64,000 bases of DNA from a plasmid. This document shows, one piece after another, positions 18,001 to 24,000 of the stretch (positions within the stretch are counted from its first letter, which is position 1; every line of letters starts with the position of its first letter). Made by a program: the position numbers. The DNA lies in the NCBI RefSeq assembly GCF_054482525.1, contig NZ_JBTHVG010000003.1; one strand, given 5' to 3'.

Positions 18001-21000
18001 GGCTCTGAACGATCTGGCATTAGCCTATGAGCTTAAACCTGATGAAAAGGCAAGCGCATGCCATCCCAGAACCGGCACACTTTCCACTGCGTCCCAGGTA
18101 AAAAAACTCCGCCGTGTCCTTGAGAAGCAGAAGGTATGAAGGGCTGCATCAGCCAGGCCCGGATATAAATACATGCTCTGCCAGGTGAGTACCACTGCCC
18201 GGTAGCCGAATGATAAGTTTTGATTTCACGGTTGCAATTTCTCCCTCTGGCATCACTGCTCCACGATGCACCCCGATCAGCTTAGCGTCTGAAAATGAAG
18301 ATGCACCGGACCTGCATGAAGCGGAACGGTGCCCAGCTGAGTGTTTGTGGGCACAATGAACCGCAATTTCATGATGGGAATGAAAGATGGCTGGTGGCCC
18401 GCTGATATGAACGCTTACCCTGCATAACGTTACTAACCACAATCTTTTCACTAAAAGAAAAAAGGGTTCCTCCGCTTTAGAGGAACCCTTTCAAAAGGTG
18501 CCGATGGCATACTAATCCACACCCTGAAAAGAGGGGGGTTGCCCCCATAAGCGCTAACTTAAGGGTTGTGGTATTACGCCTGATATGATTTAACGTGCCG
18601 ATGAATTACTCTCACGATAACTGGTCAGCAATTCTGGCCCATATTGGTAAGCCCGAAGAACTGGATACTTCGGCACGTAATGCCGGGGCTCTAACCCGCC
18701 GCCGCGAAATTCGTGATGCTGCAACTCTGCTACGTCTGGGGCTGGCTTACGGCCCCGGGGGGATGTCATTACGTGAAGTCACTGCATGGGCTCAGCTCCA
18801 TGACGTTGCAACATTATCTGACGTGGCTCTCCTGAAGCGGCTGCGGAATGCCGCCGACTGGTTTGGCATACTTGCCGCACAAACACTTGCTGTACGCGCC
18901 GCAGTTACGGGTTGTACAAGCGGAAAGAGATTGCGTCTTGTCGATGGAACAGCAATCAGTGCGCCCGGGGGCGGCAGCGCTGAATGGCGACTACATATGG
19001 GATATGATCCTCATACCTGTCAGTTCACTGATTTTGAGCTAACCGACAGCAGAGACGCTGAACGGCTGGACCGATTTGCGCAAACGGCAGACGAGATACG
19101 CATTGCTGACCGGGGATTCGGTTCGCGTCCCGAATGTATCCGCTCACTTGCTTTTGGAGAAGCTGATTATATCGTCCGGGTTCACTGGCGAGGATTGCGC
19201 TGGTTAACTGCAGAAGGAATGCGCTTTGACATGATGGGTTTTCTGCGCGGGCTGGATTGCGGTAAGAACGGTGAAACCACTGTAATGATAGGCAATTCAG
19301 GTAATAAAAAAGCCGGAGCTCCCTTTCCGGCACGTCTCATTGCCGTATCACTTCCTCCCGAAAAAGCATTAATCAGTAAAACCCGACTGCTCAGCGAGAA
19401 TCGTCGAAAAGGACGAGTAGTTCAGGCGGAAACGCTGGAAGCAGCGGGCCATGTGCTATTGCTAACATCATTACCGGAAGATGAATATTCAGCAGAGCAA
19501 GTGGCTGATTGTTACCGTCTGCGATGGCAAATTGAACTGGCTTTTAAGCGGCTCAAAAGTTTGCTGCACCTGGATGCTTTGCGTGCAAAGGAACCTGAAC
19601 TCGCGAAAGCGTGGATATTTGCTAATCTACTCGCCGCATTTTTAATTGACGACATAATCCAGCCATCGCTGGATTTCCCCCCCAGAAGTGCCGGATCCGA
19701 AAAGAAGAACTAACTCGTTGTGGAGAATAACAAAAATGGTCATCTGGAGCTTACAGGTGGCCATTCGTGGGACAGTATCCCTGACAGCCTACAAAACGCA
19801 ATTGAAGAACGCGAGGCATCGTCTTAACGAGGCACCGAGGCGTCGCATTCTTCAGATGGTTCAACCCTTAAGTTAGCGCTTATGGGGGTTGCCCCCCTCT
19901 TTGTCAGCTACTTACCGGATTCGTAGGCCAGGATAGCAAATACCTCCCTTGTTCCGTCTTTCATCCGCAACTCGCAAAGCGAGTTTCGTGTGAGCCAGGT
20001 GAATATCAACAGCGTTAAACAAACTATTAATATGCACAAAACAATGGGTTGGTTCGGCATTTTCATGGCCTTCTTCTCCTTGCATTTAAGCAGGCAAGAG
20101 GCTACGCTGTGTGTGACTAGCATACAGGGGCCTCGGGTTGTACTGACCCCAGAAAGTTGGACAGTTAAACACGAGGCATATAGGTCTGATTCCGATATTC
20201 AATTGGAGTCAGACCTTTTAATTTCAGGCTAATTCTTCTGCTGTTGTAGTATTCAATATATTCCGTAACAGCATCCTTCAGCTCGCTTATATTACTGAAC
20301 TCATCAAGATAAAAACACTCCGACTTTAAGGTTCCAAAGAAACACTCCACCACAGCATTATCCAGACAATTGCCTTTTCTGGACATGCTTTGTTTAATAC
20401 CATGTTCTTTAAGGATATTTTGATATCTTCTCATACGATACTGCCATCCCTGGTCAGAGTGCAGAACAGGATGCTCGTGAGGATTAAGCTTTTTGAATGC
20501 CTGATCGAGCATATTCTCGACCATGTTCATCACTGGTCTTTCCGAAAGGCTGTAAGAAATAACTTCGTTGTTGAAGAGATCTATTACTGGAGACAAATAC
20601 AGCTTGCGCCCATTGACTGCAAATTCAGTAACATCGGTAACCCACTTCTCGTTTGGCCGCGTAGCCTTGAAATCTCTTTGGAGAACATTGGGGGCGGTTT
20701 GCCCTACCTCTCCTCTGTAAGAGCGGTATCGCTTGACCTTAATCGCTGCCTTCAGTGAGAGGATTCCCATCAGGCGCTGAACAGCTTTATGGTTAATCTG
20801 TTTCCCTTCTCGATGAAGAGACAGCGTTACCCTACGGTATCCGTATCGGCCTCTATTCTCATGATAAATCTCACCAATACGCTTTTTAACGTCCGCATAC
20901 TTGTCAGGCTTGCTGAGAGCCTTTAGATGGTAATAAAACGTACTGCGCGGTATCTCCGCAGCCCTGAGAAGCTCATCAAGAGGATAAAACTGCCTTAGCT

Positions 21001-24000
21001 CGTTGAGTACTTTCACTTTTTCGTGGGATGAGCTAAGGCTTTCAGCTTTTTTAGATACACAAGCCGCGTTTCAAGAAATCGAACTTGCCTTTCAAGATCC
21101 TCAATGCGTCGGTCTTTTGACAGCTCCAATGCTGATGCCGCTTTTTCTGGATCAACTGATATTGCAATGTTTCTTTTGGTGCCAATCTTGAGCGCGCGTA
21201 AACCAGCTTCTCCGCGCTCTTCATAAACCTTCAGCCACCTGGCTACAGAACCACTACCAGCAAGCATAAAGTGAGCAGCAGCCTGATTAAGGGACATGTG
21301 CTGCTCGATCACCGCTTTCACGACCTTAATACGCAACTCAGGATCAGCACTAACACCTTTAGGTTTGGGAATTAAACCTTTTTCTCCATGTTTTTCATAG
21401 AGGGCAACCCATGTCCTGACCTGGGTTCGGGGGACACCAAAACGTGCCGAGATGATCCTGTAACCATCATCAGTAGTGAAGTAGTGATTCACGACTTCAA
21501 GGCGCTTTTCAAAAGGGTATTTTGGCTTTGACATATCAGGGGCTATTCCATTTCATCGTCCAACAAAATGGGTGCAGTACAGGTTAATTGAAAAATTACT
21601 CGGGGCTTTCTGCTTTTACCACAGTCAAACAGTGTTACCGCTGGCTGGGGCAAAAGCCTCCAGCACCAGCGTCATTATATCACTCTGCCCTGATCAGCCA
21701 AACACCCTGCCTGCATAAATCATTGATTTATAATTTATTTGACATGAGTCACTTCCGGTTGTCGGAGACAGTCTTTTTACACTAAAGAAAAGGGTAACGG
21801 GCAGCTGCTTGGTCGGAACATACAGTGCAGTTCCTGCCCGTTTAATTTCCGGATGCAATGGTAGGATCAGGAGGCACTGGTTCCGTTGATTAGGGAAAGC
21901 TTATGTGCCTGAATACGGCTGTATTCGAGATGGGATGGAATATTACAGATGCGCTCCAGTCGATCATGCAGCCTCGTGTAGGTCAGTCGATGAATACCGG
22001 ACATTTCATCAAGTAGCCAGCGCTTGATGTAAGGGTTACAGGAAAGCCGGGCAAGATCGTCGTCATCCACTTCGTCAAAGAACCAGTACTGCTCCATCGG
22101 GACTACCTGAAATATCCACGGCCGGGGATAGTCCCCTGTGACAACCAAAAACCATGCGAGAAAGCATAGACACAGCTCAACGATCATCAGCATCGAAAAT
22201 TGCGAATAACTTAGACCAGGCACATAGGGTGAACTATCCGCAACATACCCCCTGAACAATTCCGCCACAAGGTAGCCCAATAGCGACAAGGCCAGCATCA
22301 GGGTCAGGATTAATCCCCCATTAAACGCTACCGAAGCCTTTTGAACCCGATCAGGTGCTGTCCGGCTGCGATAGTTGGTCACTACTCTTTCTACAAGTGC
22401 CCTTATGGCAGCCTGTTCTTTACTGACATCAGCTCCGGAAAAACCGGACGGGCTTTTATTTAATTCAGTCATACCCCACTCCTGTTATGTGCTCTACTGA
22501 ACAAACACGTAGATCATACAGAGCTCACGGACGCACTCCTGCCAGATAAAGGAGGGAATTTGGCTGTAAGACGGTTAGCCAACAGTTCAGGTTATGCGTG
22601 GGATCCGGCCAGTCAGAAAGGATTCCGTTATTAACAGGCAAGGTTAAAGGCAGATGGACGTTGAAATTGTGGATGCTAAAAGGGGTATTACTCTTTTTCC
22701 TGCATAGCGGCTTTTTCAGCCCGGGTGGCCAGGCGAGCATTTCCGAAAGGTTCACGGACAAGCAGGGGCTTCTCCTTCTTCCAGCCCCTGATAGCCGTTT
22801 CTCCAAAACGACGTGGTGCATTGCCGTTCCAGCGAGCAATCACATGATTATCATGAATTTCTATAATGACAACGGGGTGGACAATGACCGTTGTAATGGT
22901 GGTATTTCCCATTTTGGTACGGGTTACAGACCAAACCTGCATCCCGGATTCCAGCTGGCTGATTTTCATATTATATCCTTAAGCCAACACGAACTGCGCC
23001 ACAAAAATTAATGTGGCGCAATTTACCATAAACAATAAACATCAGATACCCGTGAAGAGATTTCCCTTTATTTTAAAATTCTTCTGGAGAAAAAATGATA
23101 TTTCCAGAAGAAGTCAGCGAAATTCAGAAACGGCCATCACAATGGTGCTGCGCTGACGCTGGCGTTCTGCCTTGCGCTGCCTGCGGCGATAGATCTATTT
23201 TGCGCTGACGTAAGGGCAGTCCTCACGGGTATACCAGCAGCAGCCGCAAGGTTCGGGCCGGGGTTTTCCGGCAAGTCCAAATGGTTTCATCAAGTCACCT
23301 TTTTAATATTTTTAATGGCAAGATACTTCCCTAACACATTGTTTTATCGCATATAACGCTGTTGCATAAACAGATACAGATAACCCTCAGGAGAAAACAT
23401 GCAAAGGTTATCAGTGATAACCGCATCCAGATACCGAGTGTCAGTCTGTAAACGTTTTATCACCAGAAAATGTGCTGCCGCAGCCTTAATGCCAGAACTA
23501 CCGTTTACAACATTATGTATACCCGCTTCGAATAACGAACGAGCATGAATTACCTTTTCCCGGGCCGCTTCGATCTCCGCATTAATAACGCATTGCCGCG
23601 CCTGGATGACTGCCTCTCCGGTTAAATCGCGGAAATTCATTAGAGATGTGATCATGATTAACTCTCCAGATTATGTGGAATCATTATAACAACTGGCATC
23701 CCGCCACAAATAACCTGAGAAAAATTCTTTGAAATATTCCTATATATAAGGAATTACAGTCGGAAAAGAAACGATGAAATAGCGCCGACCGCTTAAAATC
23801 GATAAATTAAAATGGACGGCACTGGAATGAAAAACTGAAAGTAGTAAGACCGTAATTATCCTTCACGGATGTAAGCTTTATAAGAGGAGTACTGGCAAAG
23901 CTTTGCCAAGTACTTCGGCGGTTGTGTCTACGATTTTACGGATGTCATCGATCTGCGAAGGCTTATTCAACACCACCGTAAAAAGCTCTCCTTCGTTATC

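Follow-up and report, generated by a model that had tools for sequence, protein, structure and literature searches.

Insertion sequences (ISs) in the chromosomal hok loci of Escherichia coli K-12 were reportedly first described by Pedersen and Gerdes in 1999. In K-12, hokC (gef) carries IS186A, hokE carries IS186B and hokA carries IS150, with IS186 in a GC-rich hairpin past the hok stop codon, IS150 splitting mok/sok just upstream, and the hok open reading frames (ORFs) intact. In the Lenski long-term lines, IS150 has reportedly struck hokB/sokB repeatedly. Here we analyse a stretch of 64,000 nucleotides from a plasmid (NCBI RefSeq assembly GCF_054482525.1, contig NZ_JBTHVG010000003.1; the whole stretch is called the window below), in which the hok/sok locus of an IncHI2 backbone is split by two complete elements, IS186 and IS150. 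We consider it quite probable that each element sits at the recurrent site of its family and that the locus was hit through two independent target preferences. Both preferences would be met within 254 bp of any such locus, and selection for disarming hok would not be needed for the pattern. IS-interrupted hok loci and hok/sok hotspots are already known, and the window adds a further example.

Several described systems are close to this arrangement. Hot-spot insertion and precise excision of IS186 have been documented at the lon promoter (PMC3861542), and K-12 gef with its downstream IS186 is still transcribed and regulated by antisense RNA (PMC3562002). In R478, an IS186B was noted between “orf321 and ldrB” while hok/sok was not commented on (PMC5955447). 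Among IS3-family elements, IS1397 and ISKpn1 insert specifically into palindromic REP units (PMC1525189). Finally, a population survey of E. coli and Klebsiella pneumoniae located homologues of hok/sok next to hotspots of mobile-element insertion and, in its available passages, proposed adaptation (bioRxiv 10.1101/527788).

Removal of both IS elements and one copy of each duplication in silico gave a 472-bp locus, and many IncHI2 plasmids, e.g. pAPEC-O1-R, match its whole length with 100% identity. Since the restored locus equals existing empty sites of IncHI2 plasmids, the window holds two simple insertions into a known locus and not a rearranged region. The uninterrupted allele reached 81.1 bits against Rfam family RF01794 (the hok leader with the Sok target; gathering score 59), while a search of the whole window at Rfam gathering thresholds gave no match because IS150 splits this family into two sub-threshold half-matches flanking the element (21505..21668 and 20064..20218; 46.7 and 34.4 bits). 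An alignment showed the restored locus to be colinear with a comparison sequence that we take to be R1-type hok/sok, which did not come from an R1 record but was found 100% identical in well over 1000 IncF-type plasmid records. The minimum-energy structure predicted for the 414-nt mRNA of the restored locus joins nt 1-8 to nt 368-375 just 5' of the terminator hairpin, and the R1-type mRNA pairs nt 1-7 with nt 390-396 in the same overall layout. Relative to R1, GGCGC/GCGCC has become GGUGC/GCACC, with one pair altered on both sides, and the 5'-3' end pairing of hok mRNA is predicted to be conserved in the restored locus.

The Sok antisense gene is recognisable as well. Its start was placed near 20116 (+) by alignment with the annotated K-12 sokC and sokE and the R1-type locus. 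The Sok promoter (TTGCAT-17-TACGCT; R1 counterpart TTGCGC-17-TATCCT) has weak hexamers and is placed by homology only, and a simple promoter scan gave no score for it. The predicted fold of intact Sok leaves the first 9 nt single-stranded and places the rest in a long hairpin that ends in a U-rich tail (-20.4 kcal/mol, z=-4.2), resembling K-12 SokC. Taken together, the Rfam score, the colinearity with R1, the Sok alignment and the predicted end pairing identify the restored locus as a complete hok/sok type I toxin-antitoxin module, and both features that a preliminary description of this DNA had singled out as decisive, Sok and the end pairing, can be recognised in it.

The IS186 copy, a member of the IS4 family, is 100% identical to K-12 IS186A, has perfect 23-bp terminal inverted repeats and encodes a transposase with the Pfam domain DDE_Tnp_1. 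It ends 23 bp past the hok stop codon within a GC-rich palindrome, and this distance, its duplication and the collapsed target sequence (AAGAGGGGGGTTGCCCCCCTCTT) agree with the preliminary description, as does the separation of the coding region from the terminal hairpin and T-tract: a terminator-like site lies at 18460..18492 (-), where the predicted structure of the restored mRNA has its final hairpin. The target GGGGGGTTGCCCCCC is a G6N3C6 palindrome 12-34 nt downstream of the hok stop codon. If the target consensus of IS186 is, as we assume, at least four G, then N3-6, then at least four C, the restored window of 61 kb holds only two matches, the occupied one being the longer. The other match, GGGGATAGTCCCC at 22124-22136, is unoccupied. 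A 97%-identical allele in pSJO-60984, whose palindrome is 1 nt shorter, carries an IS186 with a 10-bp duplication and two internal differences, which appears to be an independent event. Likewise, IS186A and IS186B of K-12 hokC and hokE occupy a homologous GGGG-N6-CCCC hairpin 18-20 bp past the stop codon, with the targets GGCGGGGA-TCAC-TCCCCGCC and GCGGGGAGTAATCC..., respectively. By these comparisons, IS186 in the window appears to sit at an insertion hot spot.

IS150, whose ORFs are intact and transcribed in the direction of hok, has imperfect terminal repeats ending in CA. The mok-like ATG follows 15 bp and the hok ATG 72 bp downstream of the element, and these distances, like the 3-bp “ggt” duplication, are those noted before. 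Three base pairs separate the insertion point from the downstream mok ribosome-binding site (YGAGGC). The point lies within an imperfect palindrome, one strand of which encodes the terminator hairpin of Sok and the complementary strand the Sok-target hairpin. The earlier suggestion that the region hit by IS150 encodes Sok and its target is supported by the splitting of RF01794 at this point and by a Sok gene cut after about 23 nt.

The same nucleotide is used in chromosomal hokA. The uninterrupted hokA of E. coli HH97 reads ...ATCAAAG TGAGGCCCCTCTATG..., and in E. coli KFu024 the hokA leader carries, in the direction of hok, an IS150 with the duplication AAG, 3 bp before the mok ribosome-binding site and 15 nt before the mok ATG. 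This insertion nucleotide is the exact homologue of the window site (...TTAACC CGAGGCCCCTGTATG...), and the orientation is equal. The hokA leader is uninterrupted in 2828 of 5426 complete E. coli genomes; IS150 is co-directional at the AAG site (KFu024 type) in 871 and forms a K-12-type junction in 1648, i.e. IS150 is found in hokA in about 46% of these genomes. In K-12 itself, IS150 has the opposite orientation, there is no target duplication and about 40 bp of the uninterrupted hokA are missing. Strain EC476 shares the hok-side junction of K-12, but more sequence is gone on the other side. The K-12 and EC476 alleles fit deletions from the right end of an IS150 first inserted beside AGAGGC on the Sok-sense strand. 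Moreover, in the R478-like allele of IncHI2 this nucleotide is occupied by another IS150 isoform, which is 94.5% identical and flanked by the same duplication, and since the isoform is distinct, the site appears to have been used at least twice within IncHI2.

One genome per species was scanned for an IS150-type end with NNNYGAGGC directly after it, a pattern that presupposes the motif. This returned 52 stretches, and those with a real IS150-type end nearly all adjoin hok/sok leaders and Hok ORFs. They come from Escherichia, Shigella, Enterobacter, Klebsiella, Leclercia, Lelliottia, Buttiauxella, Superficieibacter, Huaxiibacter and “[Erwinia] mediterraneensis”; matches outside Enterobacterales had no IS150-like end and were about as many as estimated by chance for so short a pattern in a collection of this size. 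The right ends of some hok-adjoining elements are just 56-65% identical to the window IS150 over the compared stretch. A flank-blind sample was drawn from metagenome contigs, namely the first 120 IS150 right-end matches listed, whatever their flank. Among these listed matches, contigs with at least 40% GC gave 36 distinct flanks, of which 19 lie in hok/sok loci (15 in leaders at the canonical position and four elsewhere in the locus); six non-hok flanks carry N3-4 YGRGGC and the remaining 11 are other sequences. Scan and sample together give about 20 hok/sok loci of distinct sequence in which an IS150-type right end occupies the same position. The three bases adjoining the element vary by locus, and the duplications confirmed where the whole element was present are ACC, AAG, CCA, ACA and CCC.

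One R1-type hok/sok locus on a metagenome contig (L073) has an IS150 copy in the Sok hairpin loop, displaced upstream by about 12 nt from the canonical position; its duplication is TTC. In view of this off-position copy, the preference of IS150 appears to cover a palindrome region with one dominant position. On balance, and with modest confidence, we hold that IS150-group elements have a real and largely orientation-specific preference for the N3-YGAGGC site in the Sok/target palindrome of hok/sok, and that type I toxin-antitoxin loci would be their main enterobacterial landing pads. No statement on a specificity of IS150 for hok/sok was found in the searchable literature, which left out key older papers.

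Some further observations concern IS150 and its flanks. The element carries ACACGAGGCATA about 30-40 nt inside its right end (20166-20178 in the window), and the preferred flank reads N3 then CGAGGC (CCACGAGGCAT in R1-type loci such as L103; 20121-20138 in the window). The inserted right end is thus bracketed by an inverted repeat of 6-10 bp, both halves of which pair in a predicted chimeric Sok RNA; this may be a coincidence or a clue to target recognition. In AT-rich contigs (<40% GC) with the same 24-nt IS150-type right end, 39 of the 59 distinct right flanks listed contain five or more consecutive T between nt 4 and nt 30, compared with 14% of control positions (odds ratio 12, p=3e-19, among the matches listed). 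T peaks at positions 10-15 of these flanks, after a short stretch containing G/C. Judged by these right-flank statistics, the low-GC flanks look like the 3' half of intrinsic terminators, and it is possible that the wider IS150 group prefers hairpins resembling them. For the rebuilding of empty sites, 19 complete insertions were recovered among the matches listed; a duplication is confirmed in few of those from low-GC contigs. In two metagenome contigs (L075 and L086), IS150 has the upstream flank of one hok/sok locus, with a leader of IncHI2 or hokC type, and the downstream flank of another, with no duplication, which suggests recombination between IS150 copies in different hok/sok loci.

Table 1. 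Features of the interrupted hok/sok locus, ordered along the direction of hok transcription; positions are those of the window.
Feature	Position	Strand	Basis or remark
hok promoter-like site TTGGCT-16-TATAAT, extended TG	21674..21701	-	Promoter scan, 10/12 consensus matches
Detached hok mRNA 5' leader	21585..21668	-	RF01794 half-match from 21668; 5' end by R1 homology
Detached 3' part of Sok (loop, 3' arm, U-rich tail)	21585..21617	+	Fold of intact Sok
IS150 duplication, copy 2, GGT	21582..21584	.	Direct repeat
IS150, complete	20139..21581	-	1443 bp, 98.8% identical to K-12 IS150
IS150 orfA, 173 aa	21534..21013	-	Pfam on IS150: helix-turn-helix and rve integrase domains
IS150 orfB, 283 aa	21016..20165	-	Pfam on IS150: helix-turn-helix and rve integrase domains
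IS150 duplication, copy 1, GGT	20136..20138	.	Direct repeat
Sok promoter and first ~23 nt of Sok	20080..20138	+	Homology; now reads into IS150
mok-like ORF, 71 aa, in frame with hok	19908..20123	-	ATG at 20123
hok toxin ORF, 52 aa, intact	19908..20066	-	PF01848; DNA equal to uninterrupted allele
IS186 duplication, copy 2, GGGGTTGCCCC	19885..19895	.	Direct repeat
IS186 (PGAP name IS421), complete	18546..19884	+	1339 bp; transposase ORF 18595..19713
IS186 duplication, copy 1, GGGGTTGCCCC, 11 bp	18535..18545	.	Direct repeat
Detached fbi-like element TCGGCACC	18497..18504	-	Pairs with hok mRNA 5' end in predicted fold
Detached 3' terminator of hok mRNA, 14-bp stem then T-tract	18451..18492	-	Scan and fold

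The window belongs to an IncHI2 conjugative plasmid backbone. A 5-kb stretch around the locus matched 63 plasmid records over at least 80% of its length, the best being identical throughout, with hosts in Escherichia, Salmonella, Klebsiella, Citrobacter and Kluyvera; the uninterrupted relatives are typed as IncHI2A/MOBH. Junction-specific searches of the plasmid collection recovered the uninterrupted-type locus in 450 records, IS150 only in 384, IS186 in the orientation of the window without IS150 in 47, both elements as in the window in 68, and IS186 reversed at the same site in 115. The co-occurrence of both IS types at one plasmid-borne locus, to which the preliminary description had drawn attention, is therefore seen in the window and in the same arrangement elsewhere. 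Both reversed-IS186 records examined have the identical 11-bp duplication and also carry IS150, and the combination is not unusual in the IncHI2 family. The backbones of the different states differ by 0-3 single-nucleotide polymorphisms (SNPs) over several kb, and the IS186 sequence is identical in the forward-only, reversed and double states, while two flank SNPs are private to the window.

A third element was noticed in the R478-like IncHI2 allele, where it lies, besides IS150, exactly at the hok start codon (GGCCA|TG, equivalent to about 20064). Its 446-aa ORF matches an NCBIfam ISNCY-family transposase at 462 bits. The loci concerned are those of plasmid pECC3473_01 of Enterobacter adelaidei and of E. 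bugandensis, Huaxiibacter and Superficieibacter.

The toxin reading frames of the window are preserved. Hok matches Pfam PF01848 (Hok/Gef) at 64.5 bits (E=6e-18; cut-off 22) and is 69% identical to R1-type Hok. The 52-aa gene is full-length, as first described, and the ribosome-binding sites of mok and hok are intact. The mok-like ORF likewise runs in frame into hok, and its ribosome-binding site GAGG (20131..20134, 8 nt 5' of the mok ATG) has been kept beside IS150. The distance from the mok ATG to the hok ATG is 57 nt here and 58 nt in R1. We considered whether the in-frame mok could be a frameshift lesion and rejected this, as the layout is shared by the uninterrupted IncHI2 allele, the 97%-identical diverged allele and K-12, where mokC has frame and stop codon in common with hokC; it is a normal feature of the lineage. 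No second hok copy was found in the window by tblastn. The hok ORF shows no decay and equals that of the uninterrupted allele, which is expected for recent insertions and uninformative on retention. Most RefSeq records give Hok as a 39-aa protein (120-nt coding sequence, CDS) that begins 13 codons inside the 52-aa ORF at a non-standard start codon, while GenBank CP019195 has the 159-nt ORF. The RefSeq records with the 39-aa Hok also name an adjacent 93-aa hypothetical protein after “Brucella suis mprF” resistance, which looks spurious.

On the restored mRNA, IS150 falls after nt 86 and IS186 after nt 337. A distance of 1.44 kb now separates mok/hok from the promoter and from the detached 5' leader, in which the 5' pairing element is followed by the first hairpin and by the 5' arm of the Sok-target hairpin. 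On the other side, the hok stop codon is 1.35 kb away from the 3' pairing element and the terminator. The promoter-like site beyond IS150 reads into the left end of the element, and hok is cut off from its own promoter, as had been proposed. Sok, for its part, keeps its promoter and about 23 nt, and its hairpin-terminator is detached. By entering the G6-N3-C6 palindrome, IS186 would thus cut off the 3' pairing element and the terminator, and IS150, by entering the Sok/Sok-target palindrome, would remove the hok promoter with the first 86 nt and truncate Sok after about 23 nt, so that native full-length hok mRNA and native Sok would no longer be made. The stability and translational inertness of full-length hok mRNA depend in R1 on 5'-3' pairing, and killing after plasmid loss depends on hok mRNA outliving Sok. 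Since neither native RNA can be made, we infer that post-segregational killing has been lost: the locus, with an intact hok ORF but no promoter of its own, would no longer kill plasmid-free segregants. IS186 alone probably abolishes the stable mRNA pool but leaves toxin control, given that gef with IS186 is still regulated.

Several points weigh against the reading that two target preferences have disabled this locus. With respect to function, the loss of killing is deduced from the anatomy of the locus and from the established behaviour of R1 hok/sok, and hok may not be silent: because IS150 has the orientation of hok, transcription that starts at the hok promoter or at the IS150 promoter could run on to the intact mok/hok ribosome-binding sites. 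It is also possible that the Sok promoter and 5' recognition tail give a chimeric antisense RNA ending inside IS150, where a terminator-like hairpin at 20182..20216 is followed by a T-run on the Sok-sense strand. An improbable extension of these points is a rewired locus, in which read-through from IS150 would yield a leaderless mok/hok mRNA controlled by a chimeric Sok-IS150 antisense RNA. The orientation of IS150, the untouched mok ribosome-binding site, mok ATG and hok ribosome-binding site, and a hairpin at the IS150 right end that has no T-tract on the hok-sense strand but is followed by TTTTAATTT on the Sok-sense strand would all suit such control, as would a predicted 111-nt chimeric RNA that keeps a 14-nt single-stranded 5' tail (-44.4 kcal/mol, z=-6.3). 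However, this model is built from folding predictions, and the promoter scan found no outward promoter around the right end of IS150. In addition, the mRNA has lost its Sok-target hairpin, and a stable mRNA reservoir would require the 3' pairing element, which is 1.35 kb away.

With respect to the origin of the insertions, distinct flanks are not strictly independent events, and the flank-blind metagenome evidence is limited to the first 120 matches listed. A reversed IS186 with the same duplication could come from recombination between the 23-bp terminal repeats, and mixed states on near-identical backbones could reflect plasmid recombination or the excision or re-insertion of IS186, whose known precise excision at lon could help explain them. 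Another account is that the IS pairing is a clonal accident of one plasmid lineage with no general meaning. The configuration of the window is indeed 100% identical in 63-68 plasmid records and the backbones of the states are nearly the same, but this account is very hard to reconcile with an IS186 that occurs elsewhere reversed and with a 10-bp duplication, with another IS150 isoform at the same nucleotide of another allele, and with chromosomal hokA, hokC and hokE struck at the same places. Selection is a less remote alternative, although we regard it as unlikely to be the main cause: hok/sok would be costly or dangerous, for example through leaky toxin or host loss at segregation, and lineages disarmed by an IS would be favoured and spread. 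The abundance of interrupted alleles (384 with IS150 only and 230 with IS186, i.e. 47 + 68 + 115, vs. 450 uninterrupted-type records), the ISNCY-family insertion that another IncHI2 lineage has in its hok start codon, the frequency of IS150 in hokA across complete E. coli genomes and the adaptive reading of hok/sok-adjoining hotspots in the available passages of the survey (bioRxiv 10.1101/527788) are all compatible with it, and selection is not separable from insertion rate with these data. Yet selection would accept any site in promoter, leader or ORF, whereas IS150 is found at one position, mostly in one orientation, at about 20 loci, IS186 is always in a single palindrome, and non-hok flanks of IS150 share the N3-4 YGRGGC motif. 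Furthermore, IS186 alone leaves hok, its promoter and Sok intact, gef is still regulated in this state (PMC3562002) and the toxin is not obviously disarmed, and the hok ORF of the window is free of decay. Given one nucleotide for IS150, one palindrome for IS186 and a shared motif at non-hok IS150 sites, the positional pattern appears to be a signature of target choice by the elements themselves, on top of which selection may act. Where the preliminary description had left the choice between “recurrent selection, or target preference”, target preference has direct evidence and selection has none here.

The double hit is probably an expected outcome of site preferences and not a rarity: the conserved palindromes that encode the RNA structures of hok/sok match the target preferences of IS186 and IS150. 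What is added here is the assignment of elements to nucleotides and a non-adaptive alternative to the reading of hok/sok as adaptive hotspots, and the apparent site-specific association between IS150-type elements and hok/sok is a by-product worth following up. Should the preference of IS150 be real, it could explain much of why hok/sok is reported as a hotspot. Shared insertion sites, duplications and even orientations at hok loci are unsafe markers of common descent. IncHI2 plasmids carry mcr-1, mcr-9 and many other resistance genes, and a stability module of their backbone appears structurally disabled in a large share of the sequenced plasmids. Interrupted IncHI2 hok/sok loci should thus not be counted as working addiction systems in predictions of plasmid stability.

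Compared with the known systems, the window shares with K-12 hokC, hokE and hokA the IS families and their structural positions, and the RefSeq annotation of K-12, with IS186 in the hokC/hokE hairpin and IS150 in mokA/sokA, upholds the parallel drawn in the preliminary description. Unlike K-12, however, both elements are in one locus and on a conjugative plasmid, and IS150 is a clean insertion matching the KFu024 hokA allele and 870 other genomes, which the K-12 hokA copy is not. With R1 hok/sok (parB), the reference for post-segregational killing, the restored locus has in common the order of promoter, 5' pairing element, Sok-target hairpin, mok and hok, followed by the GC hairpin, the 3' pairing element and the terminator, as well as a similar predicted global fold. 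R1 differs in that mok is out of frame with hok, while the window locus lies in three pieces; moreover, the post-stop hairpin of R1 (GGCGGGC...GCCCGCC) has no run of four G and therefore falls outside the IS186 motif. Known IS186 hot spots resemble the window in repeated insertion into a short palindrome of G-run and C-run, in both orientations and with variable duplications (10 and 11 bp here), but instead of a promoter, the element here has hit a hairpin in the 3' untranslated region of a toxin mRNA. IS1397 and ISKpn1 provide a precedent for IS150 as members of the same IS3 family with a strong preference for a short imperfect palindrome, although the apparent specificity of IS150 is for the Sok/Sok-target palindrome (N3 then YGAGGC) and not for REP units. 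The survey of insertion hotspots agrees with our data that hok/sok is repeatedly hit but, in the passages available, reads the pattern as adaptive and leaves the assignment of elements to nucleotides open (bioRxiv 10.1101/527788), whereas the loci compared here point to the preferences of two elements.

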